A stretch of 64,000 nt of DNA from Marsupella aquatica (taxonomy: Eukaryota > Plantae > Marchantiophyta). The DNA lies in contig OZ316891.1 of the NCBI GenBank assembly GCA_973895155.1, positions 124,001-188,000 of the forward strand, in the 5' to 3' direction. The position numbers were made by a program, and so were the translations under genes. Of the stretch, positions 12,338-46,954 are shown piece by piece. Under the pieces are notes generated by a model. The model searched no databases and was not told where the DNA came from. It saw only the letters and a program-made list of their open reading frames with translations. Positions within the stretch are counted from its first letter, which is position 1, and each line of letters starts with the position of its first letter.

Positions 12338-12340
12338 TAG

Positions 12341-12350: not shown

Positions 12351-12426
12351 AAGCGGCGCCGTGCCCTCACAAGCCTTTCTGAAGTCTTCCACCAGAACTA
12401 AATCGCCTTTGAAATGCACATTGGTT

Positions 12427-15442: not shown

Positions 15443-15452
15443 AAAAATCTCA

Positions 15453-17320: not shown

Positions 17321-17409
17321 TAGCCCTCTCCTCAAGCGGCGCCGTGCCCTCACAAGCCTTTCTGAAGTCTTCCACCAGAACTAAATCGCCTTTGAAATGC
17401 ACATTGGTT

Positions 17410-18204
17410 TCAATTGTGTATTAAGTTTGATACTTGACTGGACAATTTGTCAAGCAACTTGTATACTTGCTTAACTTTTGGTGAAATTGTGGAAATATCT
17501 GGTACTTGCTTCTTTTTCTTGGTTTTTGCTTTTTCAAATTCAGAGCTAGAGCTGGTTTCATCATTTGAAGAACTAGGTGTTGTCCTTTTAGTGTTCTCTT
17601 CACTGCTGTTGTCACTCCCCTCGTCTGACATGGATTCTGATTCAGAATTGAGTTTCTTTTTCTTTTTCTTCTTAATATATTTCTTGAGCTCTTTTTTCAA
17701 TCTTTTCTTTCCAGACACTTCTGAATCAACATATTTCTGTGCTGCAGCTAAAGCTTCTCCATATGTGGTTCCACCTTCTCTTCTCACATATCTTGCAATT
17801 CTAGATGGCAGTCCATTTATGAACCAATCTCTGACTGTTGATTTTGATGTAGCCGGGTTGTATTTGTCAACTAACTCTTCCAGCTTATCTGCATATTTCC
17901 GAACAGATCCATACTTGTTCATTTTTAAATAAGAAATTTTTGTGAAGGCTCTTGCTGCTGCCCCATCTTCTTTGTATTTCTCTAAAAATGCAGCTTTTGT
18001 CTTTGTCCAGTCATTTTTATCTAAAAATCGATGATGCCACTTTTGTGCTCCTTTCTTCATAAGTCCTCCAAAAATGCTTGCCTTCTCAGCGTCTTGGCTA
18101 TGTCCATTTGAAATTGCAGTAGCTTCAAACTCCTTTAAGTAGGTCTCTGCATCCTCTTTAGATGTCCCTTTGAAGGTGTCATAGCGAATATTATTCCGGG
18201 CCAT
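17410..18204 (-). CDS. gag: Truncated Gag, second identical copy
   Basis: Translation identical to 12427..13221. Confidence 0.9.
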   Translation of the reverse strand: MARNNIRYDTFKGTSKEDAETYLKEFEATAISNGHSQDAEKASIFGGLMKKGAQKWHHRFLDKNDWTKTKAAFLEKYKEDGAAARAFTKISYLKMNKYGSVRKYADKLEELVDKYNPATSKSTVRDWFINGLPSRIARYVRREGGTTYGEALAAAQKYVDSEVSGKKRLKKELKKYIKKKKKKKLNSESESMSDEGSDNSSEENTKRTTPSSSNDETSSSSEFEKAKTKKKKQVPDISTISPKVKQVYKLLDKLSSQVSNLIHN

Positions 18205-20435
18205 GTTGATCAAATGAGTAGGAAGAAATAAACTAGGCTGTGAAGGAGTGGCATTGAGATTCAATCAGGTGGAGGAATCTTTTAGGTGCAGATGAGGCTC
18301 CTTGTTTCTTCTTCCAAATTGGTTGACTATTCTCACTCAGATATCCCTTATCTTGACTACCTGTGTCTTTTTTATAATTTGAATAGAGACCGCCTTAAGC
18401 TCTCCCATAATTTTTGTTTAACTCTCATCAGTCCAAATGAGGGAGAATTGGGGTGAGCTCTAAGTGTGGTGCTAGTGTCACGGAAAACACTAACATTGTC
18501 TCTCATTTCTTGATCTGGTGTAGCATCTCTGATCAATCTTCCTGCAAGTCTAACTGGAAGTGCAAAAGCATTCCAATCGGATGGTGTTAGTTTATTCGTG
18601 GTAGCCATGGTCAAGGTTCACAGGATTGTTGACTCAAGGTAGCTCTCTCCTCATGAATTCAGGAAAATGGGACTTTGCAATTTGCTGAAGATTTGAATAG
18701 TCATATTGGTTAACTCTTTGGAGCTCTGAAGGGTCGTCATCTCGTAGCTTTCTTTGTCAGAGACTGAAGGAATGCGCTCTGCACATTTGTATCAGTCTGA
18801 AGATTTGAATAGTTGCTGATTTTTCTTCGCGTCGTGACTTCCAATTTCGCTTCCCTTTGTCAGTCATTCCTCATTCTGAAAGACATTTCTTTTGGAGGAG
18901 AGTTGGTGCGGGTGCATTCTTGGAGATCCTTGGTTTACAAGAGGCAGCTTCAATGGTCGCACCGTTCCGTCATTTCTCAAATCCACGCCCTTTCAAGTTT
19001 GCTCGATCCATGGCTTGTATGCCCCTTTGTTGACACTTCTCTGCATATGGTGTCCGCAAGCGTTGTGTCGTTTCATCGAGTTCTCGGCGAGGTGCGTCTC
19101 TTCCGTGTGTCCCGTCAACTTGTAACCCTTCAACTAGTAAACACTTAACTTGTAAACTCGTAAAGTCATAATCGTCACGACGCTTACCCGTAACTCGTAA
19201 GGGTTAACCCGCAATGCCTTATCCCCTCGTATCTCGGCGAGTCCTTAGTAGCAAAGTACCCTTTCCACTTCAGATTTCTCACTGCTTTAGCTAACCTACT
19301 TTATCTGTGCCTCCGATTTTGTCTTTGCATCAATGTACTAGCTAAGTCTTGTATAGAAATCACTATATATTCCTCTCTTGTAATTCTTCCATTTAGCCTT
19401 AATATAACCAAATGTAGATTTACTCGTTCCCACCAAGTAATAGATAGCCAATTATGAACTCCATACTACATCTCACACTTAACACCAAAGTTTGCGCATA
19501 TCTATTGTGCAAGATGGCATAAGATATTCTAAAAAATAAATAAAATCTCCAACTATTTATCTATGGCTTTTGCCGCCTAATTTTCCTAACAGTCTATCAA
19601 ATTGGTTGCACTTTTATCTAAGTCGACTTCTCATAATGTAAGAAGTTCATACTCTTCCTATACTATAGATTTAATTGACCAAAGTGAACTGTCTCTTAAT
19701 TTCCTATCTTTCTTCTCTACAATTATGGTAAGTTAAAGTCTACCAGCTCTCTTGATTTAATTAAATCAGACTTAATCCCTCCTCTAAAAGTAGCTTCTTC
19801 CTACCACAACTTAGGAAGTCATGCTATAATTAAAGTCCTCCTAACAATCATATGGAGACTTTACTCAATCTCCTTTCTTAATTCCAAAGCATTGCTTTTT
19901 AAGCACTTTTAAGCCTCTTCTTCTTAGCCTTCATTTTTCTCCTTCCTCTCATAACAAGGAGAACTCCTTCTCGAATTACCTCTGCAAATGCAGCTGGTGC
20001 ATCTGTGAAAGTGTAAGGTCGAGCTTCCAAAACTTGAATTGACCATTCTTCATATGTATCCATAAGGAATATTTCTTTCTGTAATTTCTCAATCAATTCA
20101 ATTCTGAAATTTGACATCCACTGCCTGCATATCATATTACCCCTTCTCCAAGAGATAAACAATGAAGTCTTGAGAAAGATGTCCTTTCTATAAGAGGAAT
20201 GGCCTTCCCTCCTATATCCATTCATCTTTCTCCCTTGGTTATAATAGAGTTAAAATCAGAGTAGAGATAACTTCCTCCTAAATGGAATTGGCCTAACTCC
20301 ACTTACAATGGTTACTCTCTTTCTCCCTGGCCTCAAAATCTCTCTTAAAATCCAAGGCTTCTAATTTGGTCATTCACTGCCTAATGTCAAACCATTCCTG
20401 AATCTGTTCCCCGGCAGCGGCGCCAAAAAATCTCA

Positions 20436-22303
20436 TGTAGTTTGCCATAGAGAACCAAAAATCACATTTTAAAGTCTCCAAACTCGGTATTCGTTCCCTT
20501 TAAGAACAAGATGGGGTTGGTTTGATGTAATAAACTAAAAACAAAGCTTTAAGCTCTTGTGTCACACATAGTAATCAATCTTGACTACTTTAATCAGGTA
20601 CTTTGAAGATCGCTCCACAGCGGTGAGTAGTTTTTGATGATAACTCAACATCAGATAACCTTCAATTAAGCAAAAGATTGCAATTAACAAAACACAAGGA
20701 AAAATCTCTCAGAGTATGCTTAAGGGAGTCTGGAATAGACCAAGGTTACTCCTTAGACATAAGTAATAATGGAATGACTTTAAGGGAATCCAAATCCACA
20801 CAGCTTTTCAGATCTAAACTGCATACTAGAGTATCCTTTTAAAATGCCGGCAACATGTCTTGACCTTTCTTCCTAAGTGATACTTAGTCAAGATCTAAAA
20901 GGATAAATACTTCAGCATTTAGATGGTACTAAGCAACATGAAGGTGAAAACATCATTTCCAATGCAACTTAAACTCAATGAGTTAACTCTAAGAACTTGT
21001 GAGATTACAATGTGTCACCAAAGCGGAATCTGACATTATAATTCACGAGATTCATAACTGAGGTTTTACTTCAAGTATTTGGGTTCCAAAATACAAGAAG
21101 GAGGTAAGTCTCTCCAAATGTTAAACCTGATCTCGAACTCATAGATTCATGATCAACTAGTTTAACACAAGGGAGAGGCAAAACTGCAAAACTTAACCAT
21201 CTCTCTACACTAGGGGAAGAGGTATAAATAGTGATGAACTACAGAATAAGAGGTCACAGGGTCGAAGAGACATGCCTCTTCATAACCCTCAAAAAGTCAA
21301 AACGACGATTCAATAAGTGGAAAGCCGGAAAAAATGGCTAAGTATGAACTCTTAAACTCTTAAAAACTTAAACTCTTAAAAACGTAAAAACTTAAACTCT
21401 TAAAAACGTAAAAACTTAAACTCTTAAACTCTTAATTTCGGTATACTAAAAATTGAGTAGATTCAACTATTTTTAACTTTCTACTCCTGGTTCGGAAAAC
21501 TCTGAAATTTTTCCAGCAGGGTTTCCTAGGTACAGACTACAGCCTAAAGAAGTCTCATAGCTTTTAAAGCTCTACAACACATTTAGAAAAATTGGTAAAA
21601 GTACTATACTTTTCAATACTAGCTAAAAAGATAGTCTCCTTCAAGCTTGTTGTCGAATATCATCGGGTTCGAGCAGCTCCACGTAGGTGACAGTCCGATT
21701 CTGTGTTACCTCCATCAGCTCAGTCTGACGTGGTGATCCTCTAGAGTAGGGTAGGCACCTTAGTTGTCTCTCAGGATACATCAAAGGCATTCGCTTCATC
21801 AAATAACAGGAATCTATACGAAGAGCTTCTCTGTATATCCCTAGTACATCATAGTTGTTGCAGGTGGCAGCATATACTTGGGGATAGTGATGCAGAAACT
21901 CATCACTATTCATCATCCTGGAATAGAAGGGTCGAAGTCTCCATTTGACATCTCTGAAATACCGGTTGAAGCTGGGCAGAGTTTGAGAGGTAAGGTGGAA
22001 GAGAAGTCAGTAATGAGCGCCTATGTCTTGCATTCCTTCCCTTTCAAGGTGAGCTCTTCATCCGTTGTGGAGTCCCGTTGAACTAGTTGTAAGATGTCAC
22101 GATCACAGAGTCGCCAAATCTTAAGGTGTAACTCGTAAAGAAGTGAACTAGTAAACTCGTAAACTGAGTTTACTCGTAACTTAGGAACTTAGTAACTTTG
22201 AATGCTGTTTTAGTTACAGTTAGCAATAATTGCAGTCTAAACACCGTAAAAAATTTAAAAATTTTCAGTTTCTTCATGCTTTTGGAATTACCCACTACTT
22301 ACA
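20436..22303 (-). repeat. LTR A3 (5' LTR of the tandem)
   Basis: Same sequence as A1/A2; followed by TSD TGAAG. Confidence 0.95.
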
Positions 22304-24890: not shown

Positions 24891-25136
24891 CACTAGTAGA
24901 AATACCCCCTATTTTTTACCATAAAATACGACTAACTATGACTAAAACCGGTCATGTATGACTGAAAATCACTGACGTCGTTCTTGCAACTAGTAGTCAT
25001 AAAAGTGGTGACTTGGATTAACTTAGTCATATTATTGACTAGTGTCATTAGTCATTAGTCTGCAGGATATAGATGTATCTGTGGTTCTGAACCCGAAACC
25101 AAGAAGAGGGCAGGCCTGTGACTCTCGATGATTAGA

Positions 25137-25157
25137 TTTAGGGTTTAGGGTTTAGGG
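25137..25157 (+). repeat. (TTTAGGG)3 plant telomere-type repeat in the CACTA subterminal region
   Basis: tttagggtttagggtttaggg. Confidence 0.85.
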
Positions 25158-25471
25158 TCAAGTATTTGGAACCATACATCAGTCAAACATAAGTGTTTAG
25201 AATGACTTAGTTCGAGTCATATGGGGTTTTCCGTGAGTGATTGATAACACTCAATTGACCGCACTAGTTTCCGTAGACAATGCTGTCATTCATAGTCGAG
25301 ACTGAGTCATTAATGTCACAAAAGCACCAATCCAACTAACAATGGCACGATAATAACTCAAAATATGAGCAATCCATAAAAAAAAAGTATTACCCAACAT
25401 CATGTACTCCAAATTGTGGTCATATATTGAAACAATCCTTCACATTTTGAGTCTCAAATTGTATTTGGTAC

Positions 25472-28335
25472 CTAACACTCTACAAATTTCTCAGGCCACA
25501 TCACAAATGATTCCACAGCATCCACAAGATGGATGTGTGGCGGATCATCTCCCTTGTTTGGAAAGGGTAGAAGATATTTGGGCTTACTGACAGCAGTCAA
25601 CAACAGCACAACATGATCAGCAAGTACCTTCTTTCCATGGAAAGTACTTGCTTCAATTTGAAGTATGCCTTGCCCAACACAAACACCAGAATTATCAGTT
25701 GCCATTAGCCTAAAAGACTGTGCTACAATGCTCACTGCTGTCCCTTTTGGAGAAGTGTTATTCCTCTTCTTCTTTGGTGCCTTGTAAGGCAAAGTCTCCT
25801 TCCCACTGTTTCTGGTCCTCATCTTTCCCATGTTCATCAGTGGTGGGGATTGAGAAAACTCATCTCCAATACCTGGGGGAGGCTGAGAGTCTATGAAAAT
25901 CACATCATTGTCATCACTCTGCTTCTCCTGTGAATCTGAAAATTTGGTAGCCTCTAAGTTTCGTCTCCTCTTCCTACCTGCTGGATTTGGTATGCGCACC
26001 TCCTCCTGTGCTGGCTCTGTACCTCAATAGCAGCCACAAATTCCTTCATTTACAACTAAGCATATAGGCACTAAAGCTGTCAACAAACCATCAAGTTTGC
26101 ACTAATTGAACGTACATGGCATAGATACTCAACCACATTAACAGGCCAGACAGAGTCTTCAAACCAACATTTACTTACTCTCAATGACAGTTGTACCAGG
26201 TTCGATGATCTTTGGATCTGCTGCAACCACTACAATCTGATCACCTGATACACAATGTAACAAACCTTCAGGGTCTAGAACCTGAACCTGAACCATCCTG
26301 CATCCATGAACCTCAAATTCCTAGGTAAAGTCACACTACACTAAACATGATTTCAGATGACACGTACCACTCTTCTTTGTAGGCACAACTTCCACAATAT
26401 TTGCAGGCTCTTCATATGGATGTGCAATTGGGTGCTCAACCCTGCCAGCAATGTGCATCGCCCGCAACTCACGTAGTTCAGCTTGTACTTCCCTTAAGGT
26501 TGATCCTTGGCTTTGAAGAAGACTAGCTATGTCCTTGAATTGACTCTTCATCTCAGTCTCTACTGATGGCCAAGCGTTCTCCACAGTCTTCAACCGGTCT
26601 GATATCTCTGTAAGGGTAGACACTGCTCCCTGCTATATATCACATACACCAACCAAACGGCTCTTCTCAGCAATTTTACAATTGCATAAGGGCTGACAGT
26701 ACTGTACATCTGAAGAAGGACTGTATAACAGATTGTCCATCAATAATGCTCCTAAATTACCTGTTTAGATCCAATGCTGCCTTCATCACACTTTACCCTT
26801 TTGATTTTTGCCACAACCTCCTCTTTTGTGGGTTTCTCTCCAGTAAGCTTTTTCTGGAGCACATAAACATTGCAAGACACGTTTCTCAATGTCAATCTTG
26901 CCTAAACGTAGCGTGCTACTACAACTACATACAGTCCACTCAAATATTGAAATGTAAATAAAGATATGTATGGCATGGGAACCCAACCAATTTGGCTACT
27001 ACTGGTGCATGTCCTCCCCTCCCTATAAGCGTAGGATTCTTCACTGCATTTCTAGCAGCAATCATTTGTGCAGACTTCTCCTGTCCTGCCCTAGACAGGA
27101 ATGTCCCTCTCAGTCGAGCCCATTGTTCTACATGAACACTTGGGGGTGCTTCAGCATGTGGTTTACTGCCATCAGCAATCCATGCTTTGTGCAATCGATG
27201 CCTCTCTGTTTTCATGATAGTTCGTCCATACTCTGCAAGACAATCAGCACTGACCCCTTTCCCAGAATTCCCCAAATATTCCCACTTGTCTCGCATATAT
27301 TTGCAAACCAGTTCCCAGTCAGATGGATGTTGACAATTAAAGTTAGTACAGCTAATGTCCAACCACCGTAGACACTCCATTCGCAAGTCATTGTGCCATC
27401 TATTCTTTCCAGCACTCATCGTTGTGATCCGGCCTTCATCATCAACTTCAACAGTACCCAGCTTCACATTCTCACCTCTCCCAGTGCTCCCTGACGCACT
27501 ACTTGGTGTTGCAAATCCAGGAGTTGCTCTCCCATGGCCTGAGCGGGGTGTGATAGGGTTATCTGAAAAGAGAAACGCAATTAACACCATTAATATCATA
27601 TGGTCTCTGTGAACTACCTGATTTCAATACTTTACTTAGAACTGCTGTAGAAAATACCTCCTCCCCTCCGCAGACTCTGTGTCGGTTGGACTGAAGGTGC
27701 TAGTGCTGGTGCTGGTGCTGGGTTCCCACCATACCCACCATAACCTTGCCATCCTGTCGCCATTGGGAGAGGACCTCCCATGAATTGCCCCGATGGCCCC
27801 ATTGACCCTCCTTCATACATATTTGTGGGCTGCATACGGTCCCACATTGGGTCTGCCATTCACATCAGACCAGGCAAATTGTCATACTCAGACCCACATC
27901 TATTGAGGAACACAATCAGCCAATTTGAGCTCAAAATACACTTGTCCACATGAAACAAATTAAAATGTTCACACTTACTTGGCCAACTTGGACCCATATA
28001 GCTGGCAGAAGGGCCTACACCCATAGACCCGCCATAGTTATTGCCCCCCTGTCGTGCTTGCGGCCAGTTATAGTTGGGGGCATTAAATTGGGGGTTATTG
28101 CAATTGCTGTTGCTTGGGGCTTGGGCTGAGTATACAGAGGGCGTTGGTCGAGATCTCATAGAAGTTCCCCAGTTGCCTTACTACAAGCAGGCTTTGGTGG
28201 AGGGGTAGGATTTGGCATGTCATCATCCTCTGACATGCTAGCACTTGCATTCGGATCTTGGTCAGGATCATATTCTGTATCACCAACATCAGGCATGCAA
28301 TCCTCTACCTCATTCTTATCAGGAGATTCAGCCAT
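25472..28335 (-). CDS. CACTA TnpA-like multi-exon gene with C-terminal DUF8039/Tnp1-like domain (exon boundaries approximate)
   Basis: Minus-strand ORF series with GT-AG borders; RWHNDLRMECLRWLD...MKTERHRLHKAW...QWARL...KSAQMIAARNAVKNPTLIGRGGHA, a coiled coil, and terminal VCVGQG...LPFPN...DAVESFVMWP. Confidence 0.75.
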
Positions 28336-28798
28336 TGAAATAGGGGTCTTTGAAGTCAACCTCTCACTGCGTCGCCTAGGTCCGTCAGGATTACAGAAGG
28401 TCTTCCGTCTACACTGACTCCGCTTCGACAGTGTTGGGATACTTTTGTTACTGCAACACCCACATGAAATTCGACACAGGTTATGTATGTAGTAGTCCAT
28501 TACAGAAGCTACACAATGAACAGACGCACACAATGAGATACACATACAGCTCATACTATGCACAGTCCCTTACATATCCGAAATAGCCTCTTGCACATCA
28601 CCCAACAGGGCTGCGGCACATTGGCGAACCCATGCTCGATGTTTCACAGCCTGCTTCTCATACTCACACATGCCATTTTCGTCTGGCATCCTACTCACCA
28701 AGTTACTGCGGTTGCACAAACAAGTCATCCATTTATTGCTCATACTTGCTACTCATTGCACTTCAAAGAGTCACCTACTCACAACAAAACAAATCCAA

Positions 28799-31700
28799 CT
28801 ACTCATCATCTTCGTCCATGTCAGCTTCAACCTCTCCCTCATAAGTCTGTCTCACTGTCAAGGGGATGTACTCCCTGGTCCCCTGGCCCCGATGTACAAC
28901 GTCTACTGCCGGCTGTTCAAAGGCCCCATGTGCATCCAAACTGAACTCTATTTTAGTACCCTCCATCCTTCGAACTCTAGGTGAGCTATGGCAGACTACA
29001 CGCCAACCACGAGACTCCTCCACATCTAAAAAAAATACTTGCTCCACTTGACTTGGGAACACAAAAGGCTCCATCCATTCTGCCAGTCTTTGGTTAAAAT
29101 TGACCATTAGAAAGCCATCCATATCCCGTTTCATGGTCGCTCTTGGCCCATGCCAATCTGGCTTCACCCATGAACCTTTCATTAGGATGATTTGTTGTGA
29201 TGTGTTCCCATAATTCAGTGCCCAGATGTCTGCCAACTCCCCAACATATCCCATCTCCATCCAGCCCCTGTTGCTCTGAGCATCTATATGCTCAAACACA
29301 GATATTACCCCCGAATTATATGTCACTAAATGCTTGTCCTCATCATCATGCACACGGTACTGATTCCCATATGCTTTCATCCGTTTATACCGCTGTACAA
29401 TACGTCTGGGAGGCATAGACAAGAGGAGAACATCTCTATCCATGTTTGGGTTCTGCCTGCTATGCTCTCGAATTGTTGTCCTAATCCACTCAGGAAAAGT
29501 AGGGAATGCCTGGTGATTTAACCCTAATTGGGCGGCCTTCTGCACATTGTATTCCCTGCATGATGACAATGAGAACAATTTCTCAATACAATGTACATAT
29601 CCTACCAAAATGGATATGAATAAAGAAGGAATGCAAGGAGGGTGCGGAAACATGAGTACTCACTGCCACCAAGGTTGCATCATGACTGTATTGTGTAAGA
29701 CATATAAGTGTGCTGCATCACGAACTTCTGCAGACAATTGCAAGGAAGTAAAAGCGCCTTGAAGAACCTCTCCAGCCACCCCCTCTTCTTCCTCAGCATC
29801 CCACACCCTGCTCCTAACAGTGTCTACACCAGCCATGTACTCTGTAAGGAACCCCAAGGTCTCTTCTTGAATGTAATCGAGAGCCATGCTTGCTTCAGGC
29901 CTATAATAAGTACGTACATGGCCTTTTAGCAACTTCATGTACCGTTCCATTGGATACATCCACCTTGTACTCACTGGGCCGTAGTGGCCCAGATCTTCAA
30001 CCGCATGGATGATCAAATGAGTCATGACATCAAAAAATGCTGGCGGGAAATAAATCTCCAAGTCACAAAGCACACGCACAGTATCTGCCTTTAACTGAGG
30101 AAATGTTGTAGGGTCCCACACCTTCACACAAATACGACGAAAGATCTGACACAATCTCAAAATGACATTGCGAACTGGTTTTTGCATCAATCCCCTCAGA
30201 CATACTGGTAGAATGTCTTGCATCATAACATGGAAGTCATGAGTTTTCATGCTTCCCAACTTCTTCTTCCTTATATGCTTTGCAAAGGCTCCAGCGTACC
30301 CAGAGGGTACTCTGAACGAACTCAGCCTAGACAAAATTGTGTTCCACTCGTTCTGGGTGCAAACATATGGAGCTTGGTACTTGAAAACCACACCCGGCCT
30401 ATTCTGGGATTCTTGCAGCCAAAGTTGAGGACGAATGCCCTTCTCCTGAAGGTCCTTTCGTACTGCTGCAGTATCGTTGTCCCCCGATAGAAACTTCAAA
30501 AGACTTTCGCATACATTCTTCTCAATGTGCATAACATCAATGTTATGTTTGCTTGGCTCAAAATCCTGCACCCATGAAGTACGCATGATTGCCACAATTA
30601 GGTTCAGACACAAGAACTAAAAACTGTTGTGCATAGGATCTGAAGAGGTTCACTGAGTACAAGTGAATATGCAAATGTTACCTTCCAATACTCCAATGAT
30701 GTGTCCATCATTGTCTGCCTTTTGATGCCATGAGTCTTTGCTGGGTCATCTGGCACGTCTCTACAAGCACCATATTCATCATAAGACACCTTGTTCAGTC
30801 CCCACTGCAGAAGTTGGTCTCTACTAACCAACACAGGAGACTCTCGAAGCTCCCTCTGGTTGTTGAAGTGGGCTATGTGGGATTGCCTGTGCCTGAAAGG
30901 GTGGTCGGCAGGAAGATATCGCCTGTGGCCCTGGAATTTGATACTGCCCAAGGAAACGGACCGTTCAGATGTAACATCTGGGCCACATTGTGTGCAACCC
31001 AGATATCCCTTCCCTACCTGCCCAGATATCATGCTATGTCCAGGGTAGTTTGCTATTGAATTAACACACATTGCACGTAGGTTGAATGTCCTCGGTCTAC
31101 CAGGTCCACAAAGTGCATCAACTGTCATAACTCCATGTGTCCATAGAGTAATCCATTCCTCCACCGCAGGGGCCAACCAAACATCTATGTTTGCACTTAT
31201 AGCAGAGTTTGGGCCGGGAATCATAAGACACAAGATCACAAAAAAACGCTTGGTGGATATCCAAGGCGGGAGATTATAATTTATCAAAGTCACTGGCCAG
31301 CAAGAATACACGTTGTTCTTGTCTCCAAAAGGATTAGCACCGTCAAGGCTTAGACCAAACCTCACATTTCTGCTCTCTGCTGCAAAGTCCGGCCACTTCT
31401 CATCTATGTACTTCCAGTGGTTGGAATCTCCAACGTGACGTTGCAAACCATCTGTACTCTTCTGATCAGAGGTCCAAGTCATCATCTTAGAAATGGATGG
31501 ACACCTATAGAGGCGCTGCAATCTTGGAATGAGAGGGAAATGCCGTAGGACCTTAGCAGGTTGAGTTGACTTCCCCACGTTCTTATATCTGTGCTTTCCG
31601 CAGATAGGGCAGGATAGGCAATCAACATATTCTTTTCTGAAAAGTACATGGCCATCTGGGCATGCATGGATGGACACATAATTCAAACCAAGTTTGCTCA

Positions 31701-32556
31701 TCACCTTCTTTGCCTCATACATGTTCTTAGGAGCAATGTTTCCAGCGGGTAGTACTGTCCTCTGTAGGAACATCAACAACTCTGTTACACATATGTTGGG
31801 CACACGGTGACATCCACATATATTGAGGAACATCACTATGAACCCTAGTTTGGAGCAATTTGCACCACCATACAATGGGGACGTAGCTTCCTCCAAGTAG
31901 GCCCCAGTTCCCAAGAATTGACCATCATCTCCAGCTCCTTCTCCAATGTCAAACTCTTCTTGGTCCGATGGATTTGCACCATGCATGTCTGGTTCTTCGT
32001 CCCCCTGTGCCTCTGCATCTTCATAAAGTGCATCCAGGTCTTGAAAAATGTCGGAAACCATCCTAGGAACATCTGCCCCGTCCTCATTAGAAGTCTCGGG
32101 ACCTCCCTGTGGAACATACTCATCTTCGGCATTGTTGCCTGCATGACCAGTGACGTTATGAAAGAATGCAGAGCGTCTTGCTGTATTCACATTTTCAAAA
32201 TCTGCTCTCCATTCATCATCCGATGAATCCTCTTCCTCTGGCACATTCCACACCCTGCGGATTGGATGTCTTCCATGCCTTTGAAGATGAGAATGCACTT
32301 GGTTCAGGGTCATCGAGTGGTATCCTCGACATTGCATGCAGGGGCATCTCATCCGGGCATTTCTGCCCCGACTTGCTCTAAGCACCTCTCTATTCCACAA
32401 CTTGGAGTCATGACATGTAATCCTCAGTGGGTGATGCAAAGGGAGTCGCACTTCATTGGTATGTCTCTGATTCCTTTGCCCCAACTGTCCATCCTCATTT
32501 GCCTGATCCATACCTTCAGCTGTCGTAGGCACCCCTTGGCTATGTACCCTTTGCAC
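28799..32556 (-). CDS. CACTA TnpD transposase (Transposase_21, DUF4218, DUF4216); exons ~32556-30682, 30565-29665, 29555-28799
   Basis: CPCMQC..HLQRHG, IHACPDGHVLF, LRHFPLIPRLQRLY, FGLSLDGANPF, YNLPPW, IDVMHIEKNVCES, WMYPMERYM, EPFVFPSQVEQVFF. Confidence 0.93.
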
Positions 32557-32904
32557 TAGACAGGCTTATACAATTGCATATTCTAAGTACATGGAGGGGA
32601 CACATGCAAGTTTCATGAAGGAAATATCATAGACGCTAAACACACTCACTATCAAGTCCGCTCTGTGCTGGCGCCCGACCTGCTCACTACAGGCAGCAAC
32701 ATCATAACAGACTTGCTATAATCAGTGAAGTGCTTGGTCGTTGACCAGTCAATGGTACAACGTACATCATACACTGCCATACATCTCCACATGCAAAACC
32801 AAGACATTTGGAGGATGAAAAGGAGTAATGTCTTGTAGACAAAAAATAACACACAAAAGTTTATTTCAAAAATGTAACCGTCTAGCATACAGACAGTTGA
32901 GACC

Positions 32905-33855
32905 TTATTCATAATCATTAGGGCTAATAGAATCATACACACTATCAGAAAACTCTTCATCCGTGGTCTGGAACTCAGAAGTAACATATTCTGGGTCGTC
33001 ATAGGGAATGAATGGCTTTGCTGGCCATATTTCATATAAATCATATTTATGCTCATCTAATCGCATATTTGTTGAAAGTGACTGCCTGACCCATTCAGGG
33101 CAGACCACACGCAGCCCATGTGTGATGAGCCATCGTACTGTGGACTTTCCATACTCTCAGCATGCCTTAGAATATGAATGAGCAATGAGATGGGTGGTCT
33201 CATTAGTGAGCTTCTCAATCACTGTACCACCTCTTCTACTGATCTCCCTCTTGAAACGACAGACCCTATATGGCTTGATAGACTTGTCAAGTATAACAGC
33301 CCTCACACCTCTGAACATGGTACGGTCTGGGATGGGTTCTGTCTCATATGGGATAATGTTGTTGTATACTTTTGTGATCTGGTCAATAGACGGAACCCTA
33401 CTCCCACCTCTCCCTGCAATTCTACGAGCCTTGTGCCAATCTCGACTGTCTTTCATCATTTGGACGCTATTGTACTTGCTCTCAAACAAATTGTAATCAT
33501 CAGGATCTTGGACACTCCCTTTTCTAAGGGAGTCAGACATCCATTCTGCTGAAAGTATTTTGACATGCCTCAAGAAGACTTTGTCATAGAAAACCGACCA
33601 AGATGCCATTTTCAGACAATGTTCCCATGTTTCTGCAATAATATGGGTGACTTCAGTGTCCTGTAGTTGAGATTGTGTCTCTGTACCGTGACACTCAATG
33701 AGTTTTCTCCTAAGGATATCCAATCTTGCACTCTGAATACCTGGGACAAAAAAGACTCTGACCCCTTGGAAGATGGGAGCACACTGGGAAGTTGGAAGGG
33801 GGACAAGTTCACGCTTCCGTTTGGAAGGCATGATGCCTCCTGTAATAAAAGCCAA
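32905..33855 (-). pseudogene. Tandem BRCT-domain protein (Pol lambda-like BRCT) with one in-frame TGA at 33157-33159
   Basis: IFQGVRVFFV...VTHII...ILSAEWMSDSL and MFRGVRAVIL...GGTV...TTHLI...VVCPEWVRQSL; the two ORFs are in frame, 16 codons apart. Confidence 0.8.
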
Positions 33856-34734
33856 TAGAGAAATACCAGTGCCCGCGTTGCCTGTCCCTCAATGCTTCAG
33901 CCCAATGCTCTCTGATGACACAAAGTGCACTCTAGCTCCCTGATTGTGGCACACATGACAAGATCGAAAGTCAATACATGCAGTAAATCCCAGCACGGAG
34001 TTATAGGACAAACCATATACTCTTTAGTCAAATTATTTTCACCATGTGTTCATGTAATTACATTGATGAAAGTAGAGCGACAGCCTACTTCAGTATACAC
34101 ATAGCATACATGTGGCCCTTTATATTGTCTTGTCTGCATATAGCCTGAATTCACATTTGAATACCTGTATCTTACGTGACAGTGGTGGGGACTGAGAATG
34201 ATATCATTCAACTGCCCAATTTCCAGTCACATCTGTAATTGTACAAATGTATGGGTCAGGCACACGACTTAAGATGACCTTTGTTAAGAGCAGAAACAAA
34301 TACATAATTTGAGCTATATATGTATTTTCATACTCCAATGCATGCATGTTGTTTTACTCCAGGCAACAGTCTGCTTGGAATCTTTAGTCTTTCACAGTTA
34401 TGGTCTCTTGCCATACACATGATTCACTCAAAGTGGAAAAAACACAGACATCCTTGTGCAGGCCCTAACTTTGAAATTGCAATTAACTTAATCAGTCTTC
34501 AAAAAATAAGTTAACTTAGTTAGTTTTGGAGGTGTCATCGTGTACGAAAGTATAAGGACAGAACCATGTATGGCTGAACTGAAAAAGCAAGATCCAAATT
34601 TACTATGCAGTCACAAAGTCGATCGATAGCTCACTGTAGCGGGGTGTGTCTGAGCTATGGTTGACAGCGCAGTGAGGTGCCCACTTCATTAAAAAGTCCA
34701 AAATGTGAGATGTGCAATGTTGGATTCATTTAGC

Positions 34735-35457
34735 TCAGCCTGTTGGTGCTGATCCACTTGTTTTGTTGCTGGCGCTGGAGGTGTCATCCAGCAATAGCCA
34801 AGTCAAGTGGTCTCTCGCAGGGGTCTGCAAATGAGGGTCAATCGTATGGAGGTGGCAATACAAAAACCACCTATCAACCCCGTGTGCAGAGTGGGAATAA
34901 ATTTGGCGGTCACATGCATACCCTTCTGCCTGAAGGGCTAGTAAACACTCATGGTGCCAGGCTGTGGGACATCTGGGACAATGGACCATGTCTATCCAGT
35001 AGTCATCATCAGGCTCCCCACAAGCAGGACAAATATGTAGTGGGCAAAGGGAGTTATCATGGGGCAAGCATGTCAAACAAAAAAAATGAACACAAAACCT
35101 GTCAGGACATTTCCGCAGCTCTGGTTGATCCCCCTCAACAGTGCCGTTTGTGCCACATTGAGCACACTTGCTGATATTAGTGGCACAATCAAAGCAAGTC
35201 CAAGCACCCCGATGGTCCCCCTGGAGCCCAACCCCAGGGCATGCATTTTGTGGTGCATAAGTGGACCAGGAATTGACATGGAATTGTCTCAGGCAGGGGC
35301 CATCACACATGACCAGGTCACCTCCATCATCACAAATGGCACAGACATGAGCGGCTTTCTGATGAATTTGTGCATTGGACCAATGATGATGTCTACTCAT
35401 GGAATCGTGCCTCACCTGTGATCCGCCTCTGTGTGCTGACCGTTTTGGACGAGCCAT
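34735..35457 (-). CDS. Stand-alone EDM2/NSD-like composite PHD-finger protein
   Basis: CAICDDGGDLVMCDGPCLRQFH...WTCFDC...KCAQC...KCPDRFCVHFF...CPLHICPAC...CPRCPTAWHHECL follows the Cys/His spacing of plant EDM2 PHD fingers. Confidence 0.82.
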   Translation of the reverse strand: MARPKRSAHRGGSQVRHDSMSRHHHWSNAQIHQKAAHVCAICDDGGDLVMCDGPCLRQFHVNSWSTYAPQNACPGVGLQGDHRGAWTCFDCATNISKCAQCGTNGTVEGDQPELRKCPDRFCVHFFCLTCLPHDNSLCPLHICPACGEPDDDYWIDMVHCPRCPTAWHHECLLALQAEGYACDRQIYSHSAHGVDRWFLYCHLHTIDPHLQTPARDHLTWLLLDDTSSASNKTSGSAPTG

Positions 35458-37789
35458 GACTTCTACCCCGATAGAAAACAACACAATATATGGCCAGAGT
35501 CAGTGACGTAGTGAAGCATGCAAAGAATGAGAAACTAAAACTATGAATTAATACCAAAGATTTGAGAAACTGTAATTTCAAGTTCTAAATTCAAGACGGG
35601 TTGTGTGCATGGAGGAAATTTTAAGTTTAGGACTCTGAGATTGTACACAGGCAATTACTGAACGATTTCTGCCATTAAAGGTGGGCAATTGTTGGGCTAG
35701 CATTTTCACACATTAATTTTTATAAATTTTGGGGGCCACGAAAATAAGGGGAACCAGTAGAAGAATTCAAAAGTCCACAGCAGGACATTGCTCAGCACAG
35801 CAAGAAGGCCAGTAGAATACAATCGACACCCCATACATAAAATCCAATCAAATAACCCAAATCCAGTCTACACTTCCATAGTGAAATCCTAGCTTGACCC
35901 TGGCCCCGATCTGAGATTGCTATAGTGATGGGCATGCATAAGAGAGGGAGAGATTTCTATACATACTTGAGGATAAGCAGCACAAACGCTCGACCCTGAG
36001 ACCACCAGTGAAGACAAAGCAATGACAATGTAGAGGGCTCTGAGTGATTATAGACCTCAAGAGTTGACAAAACCCTGGAATGATTTCTTTGTGCCTAGCT
36101 TGGCAAAAGAGAAAGCTCTTGAACGGGTGGGAAAATGATTTGCAAGTGCCACAGACAGAGTGTGGCTCATCAGTTCTGTGGCTCATTAGTTGTTCGTGGA
36201 GGAGTACATTATAGAGTATCACATTTGACTAATGTCCTGTACATTGAATACATACAGTGGCAAAGTAGTCAATGGAAGAGTGACCTGCTCCCTTTGCGTT
36301 CTTCCTGTTGCCGAAATATGAATGTAGAGGTAGAATTGCATGCAGGAAAATTTGAAGTTTAGGGCTATGACATCCATGCTTTGTGCAACCTCTAATCCGA
36401 AAGCCTCCAAAGACACAAGTGAAGCATGTAGGCGCGCGTAATAACTTCTAATTTAGTCATTGACAGTACAAGAGTATACTCTAAAATCTGCGATTCTGAA
36501 AGTACAAGCATTGCAAGCGCGCAGGTCTGAAAAGTTGTTGCAAGACACAAATAAGCACTAAGCGACTAAGGACAGGACCGTTGAGTTGAAATCACAGCTC
36601 AGCAAAGGCAAAGAAAAACCCCCCGCACCCCACCTTAGTTCTGCACAACACTTCTGCACACTAGAATACTAGTGTATAAGATTAGAGCAATTCAAGCCGA
36701 AGCAGAATGAAAGTGCCAACAATATACTGTGATCCCATCTACATTTCCATAGTGAAATCCAAGTTCGACGCCGACCCCGACATGAGATTGCTATAGTGAT
36801 GGGCATGCATAAGAGAGGGAGAGATGATGACACGTACTTGAGGATCGCGAGAGAGAGAAATTTGCAACAGAGAGTGGACACAATGGAAGAGCGAGACACG
36901 ATGGAAGAGCGAGACCGAGAGAGAGGGCGAGAGAGAGTGAGGTGAGAATTCAGCAAGAGAGGTCTCGAATAGGGACAACCTTCTATATATGAACCATAGT
37001 TTTTGCTGTCATTAATTTTCCAGAGTTAAGATGAACAAACAGAGTACAAACAGAGCACAATGAAGCACCACAGTGCGTCGCACGGGACCTCTCACCTCTG
37101 CCTGAACACCAGCCGCACCCAACACCACACCAGAGATCAGTGGTCTTGAAAACAAGTTGACACCCTAAACCTGGCACTTCCAATGTCGCCCGCTCCAATG
37201 TCGCAGCGCATTTTTGTTCTAGCTCGTTCTCCTCTTGACCGAAGAACAACCCAACAAGCAAATGGCGGAAGATGGACGCACTTAGCACCTGGGTGAATGT
37301 GGTCACGTTGCGCTTCAAGTGTGGCCCTAAACCCTTCCTCCTCCCTTCAATCACAGAGAGTCTTCGACCGCAAGAGCAAGAAGCACTTCCTCTCCTCTCA
37401 TCTCCCAATGCTATGCAAGGCAAAGAGGTAAAGACTTACAAAGCTAATGGAGGAAGATGGACCCCCGCACCACGAACTTGGCGTCCGACCCTAAAATTTC
37501 CCGCAATGCCCCCGCAATGCCTTCAGGGAGCACTCGCAAACGCACCCAGCACCCGATTGAATGTGGTCAGGTCGCTTCAAGTGTGGTGTCAAACCCTTCC
37601 TCCTCCCTGAAATCACAGAGAGCCCGACTCACTGCACACTAAGAATCCCATTGTTTCTCCATAAACCTTCGTTCCCTCCTTGATTGATCGACTATCGATC
37701 GCCCCTCTCAATGAGTCGCCTCATTCGCTCCACCTCCCCTCCCCTTTATAAACCCTCTTTGCAGACGAAGACCCTACATTTGCTCCCGC

Positions 37790-37923
37790 GCACAAGGGTG
37801 GAGAGTACTAAGGTTCTCAGCCAGTGACATGTAAGGGGCTCATGTAAGGGGGTACTGCACAACGGTGGAGAGTACTAAGGTACTCAGCCAGTGACATGTA
37901 AGGGGCTCATGTAAGGGGGTACC
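37790..37923. repeat. Two tandem 67-bp copies in the CACTA 5' region
   Basis: gcacaa.ggtggagagtactaaggt.ctcagccagtgacatgtaaggggctcatgtaagggggtac x2. Confidence 0.9.
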
Positions 37924-38775
37924 TCTACTATTTGAAGCTTTCTCACATAAAAAGCTTGAATGTTTGGCAATTGGTGAGTAGCACTCACTCACATAAGAAC
38001 CCTAAACTAAGACAATCAGCTTAGATAGTGGACCTGCCATTTTCCTTATGATGGGATGTTGTAATTAAGTGGTATCCCCCATCCAACTTCAAAGGTGCAT
38101 GGACAACCTTGAACCATGAACAATGTCCCTTGCACCTTGAAGAATGAGTGATTGAAAAGAGTAGGTAAAGTCAACATCGCAAAGGAGTCGCAACAAATGA
38201 GTGGAAACTTTGTGGAAGTGATACTTAAGACATATGTAGTGATAACACCCTAAACTTCCATAACCTTGTCACAATAGTCAATAGTGGTTTGGTAAAAAAT
38301 AGGGGGTATTTCTACTAGTGCCAAATCCAAGAGGGTTGTTTGGATTTGGACCATCCAAATCCAAGTGGGTTGTTTGGATTCGGACCATCCGAATCCAAGT
38401 GGCTTGATTGGATTCAGATGGTCCGAATCTAAGAGGGTTGTTTGGATTCGGACCATCCGAATCCAAGTGGGCTTCTTGTATTAGATTCGGATGGTCCAAA
38501 TCCAACAGGCTTGATTGGATTCGGATGGTCCAAATCCAAGAGCCCTCAATCTCACTTTGACAGTGATTTCTTAAAACAAATTTCATGGATTTGAAGTCCA
38601 ATATGAATTTTCACTCTCCAATGCAGAGAGTGATCTGGTGAATACAACTCTTGCCATTTCAGAGGCAGACTGCGACGATGGGCTCATTTTGGAGGACCGT
38701 GATCCAGGATTTCGGTGAGGACTTGAGTTCTCGCGAGTAAACTTCCGCCTGAATTCATTTAACATTTAGGATCCA

Positions 38776-41700
38776 GTGTTATGTGTCAAGATCAAGACAG
38801 GCAACAACCAAACATTGGTCATCGGACCCGTGGTCTCTGTGGGAATGATAGGAAGAGGAATGAATTCTATCATTGTAGAGGTGTCGGACACGATGAGGTG
38901 GGCAAAGTTGCAACTTCCGTCGAAGGCTTTCTCGGCCGAGTTCAATGTGGATGGTATGCAAGTGGGGAATTAAGTGTGTTGTTGATGGGATTCTTTCCAA
39001 AATCCTACACAAAGGAGAAGATTATTGGAGGACTGAAGGGAATGCTTCCTTTGGACATTTTTTATGGGTTTCTTTATTTGAAACTCAACATTGTAAACAA
39101 CCCATCAAAGTTCTCTCTTCCATCCACATGGACTCTTAACAATTTGCTTGAGAAAGCAGGTCTAGTGTCACCAGACTCAAATGTTTGGATCACCAAGGCA
39201 CTAGCCTTTGCACACACGCTTGACCTGGAAAAAGCAAATCTATGGGTAGAGTCTTTGGTGAAGTTGAGGAAAAGTACACAACCACAGAACATAATTGAGT
39301 CTACGCCAGCCAAAAGAACTCCAGCAACTACGATGGAGACAACACAAACTACTGCAGCAACAACCATGGATAGAGCGGCAGGGAAGCGAAAGCAGAGGGA
39401 GAAGAAGCTTCCGGTTGAGAAACCTACTTCAGTTGAGAAGAAGATCACGGCTCCAGCCAAGAAGAAGTCAAGGGAGAAGAAGAAACAAAAAACCGACACC
39501 GGAGTTGTGAATTCAACTCCTGTAGATTTTTCATTACATGCTGAAGATGAGGGTGATAGGCCACATGCTCCAGAGGAGAAAGACGTCTTAGAAGGGAATG
39601 AAGTTCTTCAACAAATGGAGCAGTACTATACTTTTGGGATAAACGAAATTTTTCTGATCCCAGTTGAAAGTATTTTTGCCGCACCAGCGAGACTATGCTA
39701 TCGGATGATGAATTTTGATCATGTGCAAGACATTGCTGATTCCATGATCAAAACACCTGGGCATGAGCCACATGTCGCTGATTTGATTCCTTTTAACGTC
39801 AAGCGAAGAAAGGTACTCCATTTTGAGAATACGGAGTCGGACCGGAAGGATTTTTTGGCCGGAGTGAAAAAGGGCGAGGTCCAATTTCTAGCCGTTAGTG
39901 GTCAGCACTCTGCGAGAGCTGCGAGATGGATTCGTGATTGGGCAACGAAGGATGCCAAGCTCACCCAGTTGGCCAAGAAGTTAGAATTCAGGAAATCCAT
40001 AATATTGTCTGATCGCACACCGTCTTCAATTCTTGTTGAGCACTCCATGAGATCGAACGCCATCAATAGCACGATGGTGTTTCAGTCTTGCTTTAAAGAT
40101 ACAGTTGTCCATGCGAGGCGGCAGTTTGTTGAATGTGGAAATCCAGACAAACCAAAACATGGCGACAACAAAACAAATGCTCAAGACAACCAAAAATTTC
40201 AGGTAAGAAATGTGATTACTTTGTATGCATTTCTCTACCATAGAGAGTAATTCTATTTTGGATTCGGATGGTCTCAGTCCGACACGATTTGTCAAAGAGT
40301 ATTGGAACTTTTGGAATGTTTAGTACGAGTTTTGTTTTTGATTGAGACCATCCGAATCCAAAACTATTATCGCACATTAGAATCCTTTTTTTCCAACCCT
40401 TGAGTTGGGGATAACTGACTAGCTTTCCTTTTGGATTGTAGGATTGGTTGGCTCTGGCAAGAATGACTATGGGCAGGAAGGACTTGCGAAATGTATACTG
40501 GCTACTTTTTGCGGACAATGATCTTTTTGAGTTGTGGCGGTTAGTCTGTGAGATGTGGTTGCATGGGAAACTTCCTGATGGAGCTGGGATGGAAGGAAAT
40601 AACAAGTCCAAAAAAGCAATTACCATTGCCATGTTTCGTCCCTTTGATGGTGAGTTGATCTCACAGAAAGACATCACAAAAATCCTGACACAAGTGAAGT
40701 CAGGAAAGGCATTGCTGAAGAAAGATGCCACAAATAAATCTGACATACCCTCAATAGAGGAGCTTGCGAAGGATGTGAAAAAAGTGAGGAAGCTCAAGTC
40801 TCTCATTGAAGAGTACTACTTTGGCAAGGATCCAAGGAATTTCCCTTCGGATACCGACTGGAAGAAAGTTGTAGAGGTTCTGCCATTGTTGAGTGTTGAC
40901 GCAGAATTCAAGAGATGCAGAAGAGCGGCTGGTGAAGTTTTTTTGTCAAATCTGTTGAAGCCAAATCATACCAGGGAGAGTGCAATCTTGCCAATAGCTC
41001 TGGTGATGCGCCTTGATGACATTTATTGCCAGAAGTTTGGCGGAGGGACACATTCTCGGAGCCAACCGTGGGTCAGGTTCTTTAGTGACAATCTAATGAA
41101 AATAGTTGATCCACCAGCAATAGAAGAATCATCTCCAACGTGCTCACTTGCCATTGTTGACTTCAGTCGAGATCACCAGAAGCTGTGGATGGAAGCAAAA
41201 GTTTTGGTCTTCTACAATACATTGTGGAGCTACCACAAAATCTTACAATCGTTGTAGCCATAACTGTTCATCCGGGGTCTCTTGCAATGAATGTCCTAAG
41301 CTCACTTCAAAAATTGGGACAAGAGAAATCTCACACGATTCACATTGAGTATGGGAGTTATTCTCGAGAGGATCAACCGCACCCGCTTGATTCATGTTGG
41401 GGAGGCGGAATTGAAGAAGTTATATTCGCAGGAATTTCTTGAGATGAAAATGTCAATTGGAATGATGTTTTCAAACCCAATCACCCAAAGCCAAAATTCT
41501 TTTTTGGTTCAAAAGATACTGATTTTGAGGTCACCAAGATTGACACTGGGAAGGCAAAGGTTGACACAGACGACGTGTCAAAACCCGAAGATCTAAAAAT
41601 GATGCTGACCCCAGAAGAGGCGACCAAGGTTTTGCACATGGCCCCTCGATTTGAGATAGTTGGTGCTCGTGGTGGTTGGGTGAATCCACATGCCAAACCC

Positions 41701-42177
41701 ACGCGGATGATACAGAGGATTATTGAATCCTTGTCAGAAGCTGGAGACTTGATTCTTGATTTTTTCTCGGGTGGTCAAGTGATGAAGACAACATTCTTGG
41801 TGCAACGCGAATGCTTTGTTTATTGTGACTCTCAAGATGAGAGACACTTTGTGGAAGCGTATGCTTCATTCCTTTGTGAGAGGGTCCCCTCAATCAAGGA
41901 AAATTGGGATCCTCGTGGTGGGAGTTCTAGGCATTGGAAACCCACTATTGCGGATGTTTCTGCCAAACATGAATCAGCTGATAATTCTGAAGAAGTGGGC
42001 GCTAAGTCAGTCAAAGATAATGGGGCATCAGAGGTGGCGTATGCAAAGAATTTGGATGACCGTGTAGGTCAAAGTGAAAGCATAGAACCCTACGATGTTG
42101 ATGATAATGTTGGTCTTGCACACGCCCTTCATCAGGTGCAGGTGCCCAAAGTTAGAACTAAGAGAGGCTTCTCTTAG
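38776..42177 (+). pseudogene. ParB/sulfiredoxin-like domain fused to a beta-class N4/N6 DNA-methyltransferase-like domain; intron 40203-40441; probable C-terminal tail at 45471-45682
   Basis: IPVESIFAAP..YRMMNFDHVQDIADSM..QFLAVSGQHSARA (ParB-like); SLAIVDFS, EEVIFAG, NPHAKPTRMIQRIIESLSEAGDLILDFFSGG..QRECF (MTase motif X/I order). Frameshift ~41200 and TGA 41440-41442. Confidence 0.65.
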
Positions 42178-45470: not shown

Positions 45471-45917
45471 GTGGGCCAAATAGAGGCCAAGAAGTTTCAT
45501 TGGATGCTGCTCCATCGATTCTTAACAGGAAGGAGTATAAGAGAGGAGAATTGGGATTGATAACTCCTGTTTGGACGTCACTTTATTGGGTAGAACAAAG
45601 TACTTCAGATGTCAATTTTGAAATCCAAGAGGAGCTGGGTGTTGACATTATTGATGAATACGGATCTCTTTTTTCAGACTGAGATCAAACCGTCTGACTT
45701 TCCATTTTTTCATACCAATCTAAAATACTTCTCGGTCTCACAGAATGCGGTCAGCAATTAGAGCCTCGATATCCACCTACGCTCTTTGGGGCTTCTAAAA
45801 ATGGTATGTAGGTTTTTTTGTTGTTAGTCATTGTCTTGTATTTTTGGACTGAGACAATCTCAGTCCAAAGTTCAAATTTGGTTTTCTTTCTAAGAGTTGT
45901 ATTTGTTGCCCTTGCAG

Positions 45918-46954
45918 AATTGAGACCTTGTCCCATCAAGCGGAAGTTGCTCATTTTGGATCTTAACAAAATACTTTGGGATTCACTTGAATTCCAAAGC
46001 AAGGGCAAATCCAGAAACATTGTGACCCCAAGTGGAGTGCATTGGGATAGATCAAATGGAACTAGTCGCATGTATACAGAGAGGCCAGGGTTCCATGAGT
46101 TTCTAAAGTTGGTTTTTGACCGGTTTGACGTTGCAATTTGGACATGTGCTGGGATGCCGCGGACAGTGAAAATGTTGAACATGATGTTCACTGTTGAGGA
46201 GCGGTTGAAACTGAAGTTTGTATTCACACAGGTGGAAGCCTTTGACACAGGCATTCAAAGGCATGACATTACAAATGGAAAGGCAAATGTGCTATTGAAG
46301 GATTTTCGGGTGGTATAGAGTGCATTTGGAAATCTATATGATGAAACCAACACACTCCTTGTGGATAACTCCCCCTTGAAGGCATTTGCCAACCCAGACA
46401 TGACCGGACTATTTCCAGTGCCCTACACACATGCCAATCGTGGAGACAATTTTCTTCTAACAATTCTTTGGCCATGTCTTGAGAAACTGTCACATGCAAG
46501 TGACATTCGTTGTTATCTTCTCCTAAACTCTCCAAAGTGGTCTCTATTGCACATTAAGAGAGACAAGGAAAAAAATGAGATTACTTATGATCAACTTAGT
46601 AAGAGATGTGCAGCAAAAATTTGGAAGTCACAGTATAGGCATAGTGTGCTGGACCTCAATAGCAATGAGATTCCTTGGGCTATGAAGCACCGTATATGTA
46701 GCTTACGTCCTGAGGTGGAACTTGACGATGCACTTGTCACCTCACTTGCTAGATCATTTGTAGGACGGGAATATTCAGGTCTGTATAGAGAAAATCCCAT
46801 ACACTTTTTGCGGGAGATTATAGCAGTTAGGAACAACACCACCAAATTTCATCTCCCTGAAGATAAAGGGAGTTGCAACCGTGACATTAGGGTAGATAGT
46901 AAAGGAGACAAGGGCACGTGCTCAAATAAATATTGTAAGGAGCACTTTGTTTAG
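45918..46954 (+). pseudogene. FCP1/NIF-family HAD phosphatase-like gene, premature TAG at 46316-46318; small upstream exon 45744-45803
   Basis: KLLILDLNKIL, RPGFHEFLKLVFDRFDVAIWT, LLKDF..V*, ETNTLLVDNSPLKAFANP; the two ORFs are in frame. Confidence 0.85.

Follow-up and report, generated by a model that had tools for sequence, protein, structure and literature searches.

Accessory genes with captured host domains are described for several DNA transposons. The VANC and KIU (Ulp1) genes of the Vandal elements carry such domains and act in anti-silencing (PMC13317346), and fungal DNA transposons carrying TET/JBP genes are reported (PMC12730594). In the Pack-CACTA elements, host-derived sequence lies between CACTA TIRs (PMC13317346). 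On the side of host repair, plant DNA polymerase lambda (Pol lambda) is described as binding XRCC4/Lig4 through its BRCT domain and is linked to excision-site repair (PMC4444747), and Ku-dependent end joining of the transposon break is reported to set the excision footprint (PMC3894167).

The element studied here lies in the window, the whole 64,000-nucleotide stretch of Marsupella aquatica DNA that was analysed. Like the Vandal VANC/KIU and the fungal TET/JBP elements, it carries an extra open reading frame (ORF) beside the transposase in one element lineage. However, those genes act on silencing marks, whereas the ORF in the window encodes a DNA-repair-type domain and belongs to the CACTA superfamily. 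With the Pack-CACTA elements it shares sequence of putative host derivation between CACTA TIRs. In contrast to them, the window element keeps a full TnpD transposase, and its BRCT cargo is complete, deeply diverged and syntenic. A Pack-CACTA element is non-autonomous and holds a recent fragment with a close donor; here the TnpD is full and the protein searches returned no close donor.

The element spans 24891-38320 (13,430 bp, 13.4 kb) and ends in perfect 31-bp TIRs starting with CACTA. All of its genes are on the minus strand, in the order PHD ORF, BRCT ORF, TnpD and open pieces at the TnpA position. The features are as follows.

38290..38320, minus strand: 5′ TIR of the CACTA element; identical to the opposite end at 31 of 31 bases
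34735..35457, minus strand: intact 240-aa triple PHD ORF of the NSD/EDM2 type, with a C4HC2H last finger and no methyltransferase domain
33840..33862, minus strand: pyrimidine-rich stretch that closes with an AG, 8 nt ahead of the BRCT start codon; putative splice acceptor
32905..33831, minus strand: tandem-BRCT ORF of 308 codons, a single exon with one interruption in the window copy
33484..33777, minus strand: BRCT repeat 1, with Arg/Ile at the Pol lambda R57/L60 positions and a Trp-rich alpha2 helix conserved in the family
33034..33318, minus strand: BRCT repeat 2, interrupted by a TGA
33157..33159, minus strand: premature TGA at codon 225, inside repeat 2; a CpG transition of the window copy
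32908..33009, minus strand: acidic Ser/Thr-rich tail, common to homologues P0127, P0128, P0136 and P0138/P0195 and missing from the L001 subgroup
28799..32511, minus strand: TnpD transposase of 1162 aa, with three predicted exons (32511-30682, 30565-29664 and 29555-28799) and no internal stop
25472..28569, minus strand: co-oriented open pieces at the TnpA position, with no Pfam match
24891..24921, plus strand: 3′ TIR (31 bp); this end of the element also contains short repeated motifs

The CACTA-starting TIRs and a TnpD with Transposase_21, DUF4218 and DUF4216 domains are those of a CACTA/EnSpm element. A 3-bp target-site duplication is a further hallmark of this superfamily. None was seen at the two ends of this single aged copy, which lies inside an array of 34-bp repeat units; its flanks are halves of one such unit with one extra base. 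The sequence-only reading had described a co-oriented PHD-BRCT-TnpD-TnpA cassette. Its first three members are co-oriented inside the TIRs as described, and the label 'TnpA' is positional because the pieces have no Pfam match. The TnpD has Asn at position 488 (codon 31050-31048), compared with Asp in 83 of the 84 relatives having the motif. We take this Asp to be a catalytic acidic residue, and the full set expected of an active copy is not intact in the window TnpD. The window copy of the element is probably dead. Among the 120 TnpD matches listed, the named relatives are all from Riccia sorocarpa and are 41-43% identical to it. Together with a Streptophyta cluster as the nearest match of the PHD protein and with C-to-T decay at CG and CHG sites, they suggest a non-seed land plant as the likely host.

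Several other features were observed in and around the element. A 114-bp direct repeat (85%) in its 5′ region, at 35861-35974 and 36732-36845, is possibly a duplicated leader. Just outside the element, 38763-42177 (plus strand) holds three long frames, the last of which matches an N6/N4 DNA methylase at 27.5 bits (cut-off 26.7). These frames may form another mobile element with a methylase-like gene, since they adjoin the palindromic arrays of 34-bp units in which the CACTA element inserted. A second piece resembling the TnpA-position ORF (30% over 172 aa, E 3e-12) lies at 48388-48864 (plus strand), and searches with three patterns found no CACTA end matching it. Three head-to-tail units of 4,983 bp, in which some stretches are 100% identical and a gag-like ORF is present, occupy 10470-22300, and their inverted partner lies ~35 kb away at 54397-58070; this is either an array of tandem retroelements or an artefact of the assembly. 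A DUF7869 ORF of 1007 aa with a weak Transposase_23 match is present at 7405-10428 (minus strand), and a split NIF-phosphatase-like ORF at 45812-46954 (plus strand).

Translation of 33831-32908 (minus strand) with X at the TGA gave a BRCT protein of 308 aa. Pfam searches found BRCT_2 (PF16589, 53.3 bits, cut-off 27.3) and BRCT (PF00533, 48.6 bits, cut-off 21.3), each in two stretches, and neither an 8-kDa lyase nor a Pol X polymerase domain; the five full-length homologues that were scanned lack both as well. Thus, the proposal of two BRCT repeats with no polymerase was correct. A whole Pol lambda gene was rejected, as the ORF has no polymerase domain. A chance ORF was also rejected. The gene had also been placed directly upstream of the transposase, and the distance to TnpD is 393 bp; the start needed correction, with the ATG at 33831 and not at 33855. 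As before the BRCT ATG of the window, an AG precedes the ATGs of the PHD ORF and the L001 BRCT ORF by 5-9 nt. Pfam matches above the cut-offs and the predicted order beta1-alpha1-beta2-beta3-alpha2-beta4-alpha3 indicate the BRCT fold. AlphaFold2 models showed two BRCT folds and a helical linker of ~55 aa both in the window protein (pLDDT 63, pTM 0.39) and in its orthologue from the related element L001 (pLDDT 79, pTM 0.47). In the L001 model, repeat 2 fits onto single BRCT domains with Z of 14-15 and r.m.s.d. of 1.4-2.7 Å. Superposition of the two-domain models, at low pTM, on canonical tandem pairs or on the Lig4 pair gave r.m.s.d. of 11-20 Å, with 11-13 Å for pairs packed head-to-tail. A complex prediction of L001 TnpD exon 1 with the L001 BRCT protein, run without alignments, scored 0.00, which speaks neither for nor against an interaction.

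Related elements were sought by a scan with a TnpD alignment, from which the best 80 of 185 loci were taken. The best locus, L001, encodes a TnpD 45% identical to that of the window (58% in the core). At 875-1684 it carries an intact 269-aa two-BRCT ORF, co-oriented and 500 bp before the likely TnpD start, whose product shares 29% identity with the window protein across 269 aa (E 2e-25). An intact orthologue is thus present in the same slot of a related CACTA, as the sequence-only reading had required of its proposal. Among the best 80 of the 185 loci, a BRCT gene lies beside TnpD in one (L001) of the 52 having at least 1.5 kb upstream. When these 80 loci were searched with profiles in six frames, BRCT turned up in L001 alone and a PHD homologue in none. 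A Pfam scan covering 61 of the 106 co-oriented ORFs lying upstream, without duplicate loci, likewise found BRCT in L001 alone. A TnpD tree of 81 of 101 sequences (near-duplicates removed, core matches of at least 200 aa) placed the window and L001 in a clade of 11 tips with an SH-like support of 0.988. All 24 distinct BRCT-less loci that extend 1.5 kb or further upstream fall outside this clade, and its other nine tips are proteins known without flanking DNA. The tree and the locus searches together show that both clade members with DNA sequence carry the BRCT gene, against 0 of 24 loci outside. A third BRCT-TnpD linkage is likely, because the BRCT protein P0126 and the TnpD P0011, which belongs to the clade, are ENA proteins that each lie on one contig of 13,432 bp. 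In a further related CACTA (L003, 4089-7005), the TnpD gene contains a SET-domain exon, flanked by the exons for Transpos_assoc and Transposase_21.

Searching 1.84 billion representatives with a profile yielded 63 matches with E of 0.001 or less. Besides several fragments, ten full-length homologues with intact frames (L001, P0122, P0124-P0129, P0194 and P0195) were collected, a count biased by protein collections that hold open frames only. They are 264-321 aa long and 22-43% identical to the window protein; L001 alone has a confirmed transposon context, and the others come from short contigs. Their annotation gives no functional name beyond 'BRCT domain'. Across lineages, each repeat is most similar to the repeat at the same position, indicating that the duplication of the repeats is older than the split of the lineages. 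Two insensitive methods added no homologue: a word-index search with the window protein (0 among 317 candidates) and a BRCT-protein scan of metagenomes (0 of 41 pattern matches confirmed). Short single-BRCT proteins (P0143, P0144, P0145, P0149 and, from Riccia fluitans, P0152), Pol X-like and with no polymerase, may be further mobile or orphan derivatives.

The TGA inside repeat 2 had been attributed to a former CGA. Reads were checked by aligning four of six listed runs (two organisms, three studies, all contigs) to 32500-34100. One of the two, organism A, may be the species of the window itself. At position 33159, all four runs have G on the plus strand (CGA, Arg), at 91%, 100%, 99% and 100% of depth. 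Codon 33157-33159 is CGA in each of the four, and the TGA is therefore a decay mutation of the window copy. In a nine-row alignment, the corresponding column holds Arg in P0127 and P0128, the two closest homologues by E-value, and Leu, Val or Phe in the other six. Among 40 sites listed of 91, the covering runs differ from the window at five, and all five are C-to-T, two in CG and three in CHG contexts, which indicates that the window copy is ageing by methylation-driven deamination. An assembly error at the stop was rejected, since the TGA fits the CG/CHG decay pattern of the four other sites. In organism B (run X5), all seven indels listed fall outside the BRCT ORF (p ~0.002 if uniform), and one minor contig of run X1 has a 1-base deletion inside it. 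The synonymous to non-synonymous split between the organisms, 7:10 in a partial list with three window-specific sites left out, is weak evidence of selection. At 33188-33300, contigs of both organisms match repeat 2 there alone at ~88% and then continue into other sequence; they represent either a diverged or a deleted subfamily.

The BRCT gene is very probably an old accessory gene kept by selection. A neutral Pack-CACTA cargo, that is, a captured host fragment now decaying, would account for the stop in the window copy and for the single BRCT-bearing locus among the 52 of the best 80, but it is the least probable of the alternatives, as the stop belongs to the window copy alone, L001 has an open and syntenic frame at 29% identity, no close host donor turned up among the 1.84 billion representatives, and the listed indels of organism B avoid the ORF.

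The repeats had been likened to the N-terminal BRCT of plant Pol lambda. Host proteins among the profile matches were classed by Pfam (55 of 63 scanned). A profile of 18 family repeats, applied to a host set that the same family profile had chosen, gave 36-50 bits for six of six Pol X BRCTs, 31-32 for three REV1 proteins, 31 for one RING-BRCT protein and 14-34 for 18 multi-BRCT proteins; the algal fragment P0146 scored 62.6 bits. Mean pairwise scores rank the host classes as the profile does, with Pol X first. In a FastTree analysis of 75 domains, REV1, the RING-BRCT protein and 17 of the 18 multi-BRCT (TopBP1-like) proteins are united in a clade (0.96) that excludes Pol X and nearly all of the family. 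Beside this clade lie one family repeat and two unclassified domains, and the multi-BRCT domain P0169 (the display root) is outside it. P0146 is the sister of the plant Pol lambda P0172 (0.93), and both share a Trp at the start of alpha2 with eight of nine first repeats. Branching on the Pol X side of the tree lacks resolution and singles out no donor.

Other comparisons point away from Pol lambda. With window repeat 1 alone, the top classified host domain is that of REV1 P0155, whose score of 118 exceeds that of every Pfam-confirmed Pol X (103 or less). Human Pol lambda was absent from two PDB sequence searches and had an E of 0.33 in another. In the fold search, PARP4 (Z 15) and XRCC1 ranked higher, at Z 14-15, than human Pol lambda at Z 11.4. 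The PDB sequence and fold searches thus favour Rad4, BRCA1, Lig4, PARP4 or XRCC1 over Pol lambda, though fold searches are unable to name a donor class. The likeness is therefore moderately supported: the profile and mean pairwise scores favour it, the repeat 1 score and the PDB and fold searches do not, and the tree does not decide. Judged on these sequence comparisons, the BRCT gene probably originated from a Pol X gene. It resembles the N-terminal region of Pol lambda in the BRCT fold, in Pol X being the best-scoring host class and in a short basic N-terminus. Window repeat 1 is 32% identical to the plant Pol lambda P0172 and keeps the residues equivalent to R57 and L60. However, the family is duplicated, transposon-encoded and devoid of the 8-kDa and polymerase domains, and the Ku-contact residues of Pol lambda are poorly kept across it.

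Human Pol lambda is reported to dock on the Ku bridge via R57 and L60, and an Arg at the L60 position to impair its recruitment by Ku (PMC12056208). Window repeat 1 has Arg and Ile at these positions, as P0172 does, and in window repeat 2 the L60 position is taken by Arg. In the family, the Ku-contact Arg occurs in four of 18 repeats, and Arg together with a hydrophobic residue in one of 18, namely window repeat 1. The repeats had been proposed as a module for recruitment to end joining; the Arg/Ile pair of window repeat 1 agrees with this, but the occurrence of the pair in 1/18 repeats makes recruitment of Ku/XRCC4-LIG4 a weak hypothesis. Phosphopeptide pockets of BRCTs are described by an S/T-G motif after beta1 and a T/S-x-K motif at alpha2 (PMC10386641). 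The S/T-G motif is present in one of 18 family repeats and in none of the nine first repeats, and thus the protein is not a phospho-reader of the BRCA1/TopBP1 type, a candidate that was rejected. The family shares two BRCTs per chain with the canonical tandems (BRCA1, TopBP1/Rad4 and MDC1) and with the long-linker pair of DNA ligase IV, which are its top PDB matches. It differs from the canonical tandems in the near absence of the S/T-G pocket, in the ~55-aa helical linker and in its separate position in the tree.

Among the invariant positions of the family is a Trp-Ser-Trp patch on the alpha2 helix of the first repeat; the alpha1 Ku face is not among them. This patch could be a partner surface or an inter-repeat interface: alpha2 is described as the variable partner-binding part of BRCTs, and in canonical tandems alpha2 of repeat 1 packs on repeat 2 (PMC10386641). 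An accessory gene with a non-repair partner, whose Trp-rich alpha2 surface binds a protein of the element itself or a chromatin or silencing factor in an anti-silencing-like manner, is somewhat unlikely in absolute terms. It is nonetheless nearly as likely as a repair partner because the Ku face is poorly conserved. The invariance of the alpha2 patch and not of the Ku face, the described role of alpha2 in partner binding, the neighbouring gene of the EDM2 PHD type and the precedent of captured domains in the anti-silencing VANC/KIU genes of Vandal (PMC13317346) are all consistent with such a partner. However, nothing names one, the Trp patch could simply face the other repeat, and the window copy shows heavy CG/CHG decay.

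A decoy, in which the polymerase-less BRCT takes the Pol X site on Ku and excludes Pol lambda so that templated repair restoring the element is favoured, is improbable. The Arg/Ile pair that window repeat 1 shares with P0172 would suit such a competitor, and catalytically dead human Pol lambda is reported to be dominant-negative in an R57-dependent manner (PMC12056208). However, the R57/L60-type residues are absent from 17 of 18 family repeats, which makes a Ku decoy unlikely for the family as a whole.

The BRCT ORF could alternatively be an N-terminal exon spliced to TnpD, or the middle part of a PHD-BRCT-TnpD fusion, and serve as a transposase appendage. Its co-orientation 393-500 bp upstream of TnpD in both elements and the SET exon within the TnpD gene of L003 would fit such a fusion. 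Alternative splicing is known for CACTA transcripts and counts in the same direction. However, every full-length homologue has its own stop shortly after repeat 2 or the tail, and the TnpDs of L001 and P0011 each retain a Met of their own. As a whole, this fusion is very improbable, and sequence features make splicing of the BRCT ORF to TnpD unlikely. We infer a stand-alone BRCT product from the stop present in all homologues and the TnpD Met kept in L001 and P0011. The product would arise by alternative splicing from an upstream leader, with an acceptor of its own.

The preferred reading is therefore that of a two-BRCT gene standing on its own in one CACTA clade. By capture and duplication, the N-terminal BRCT of a host polymerase of the Pol X (Pol lambda) type would have given rise to a two-BRCT protein that may serve as a phosphorylation-independent docking adaptor. 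The adaptor would recruit host end-joining proteins to transposase-induced breaks. Given an accessory gene and a Pol X origin, such a repair role is rather tentative when assessed from the protein sequences, and its partner need not be Ku. The whole explanation, a Pol X-derived, stand-alone gene for an end-joining docking adaptor that sits in elements of one CACTA clade and is broken in the window copy, falls a little short of being probable.

The gene preceding the BRCT ORF encodes a PHD protein with Pfam matches to PHD-1st_NSD and PHDvar_NSD, both just under the cut-offs. The protein matches PHD1-3 of NSD2 with an E of 1e-7, and its nearest atlas cluster is from Streptophyta (score 0.93). 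A C4HC2H last finger is described for EDM2 and NSD1 (PMC3776765), and EDM2 is reported to bind H3K9me2 chromatin at transposons (PMC7529245). The window protein shares the triple PHD and the C4HC2H finger with the PHD1-3 cassette of EDM2/NSD, the EDM2 likeness being judged by pattern. Unlike these proteins, it stands alone, with 240 aa and without an ELP or SET domain. Its stop is 903 bp upstream of the BRCT gene, and the L001 sequence ends 874 bp upstream of its BRCT start, too early to reach an equivalent PHD gene.

A search of titles and the opening parts of abstracts found no transposon-encoded BRCT, a scope that leaves most subscription journals and Repbase outside; bryophyte repeat tables and Repbase entries could bear on the novelty of a BRCT carried by a transposon. 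The transposon accessory genes found in the literature act on silencing, whereas the BRCT gene would concern repair. Sequence comparison shows it to be a genuine accessory gene that is conserved in one CACTA clade and may act as a repair adaptor. That the clade carries a kit for host manipulation, comprising a Pol lambda BRCT pair docking on end joining and, in some members, a heterochromatin-reading PHD protein of the EDM2 type, is unlikely on present evidence. If true, a eukaryotic cut-and-paste element would possess a gene dedicated to steering host DNA repair, and the BRCT gene would make it testable whether transposons actively steer the host repair of their own breaks.
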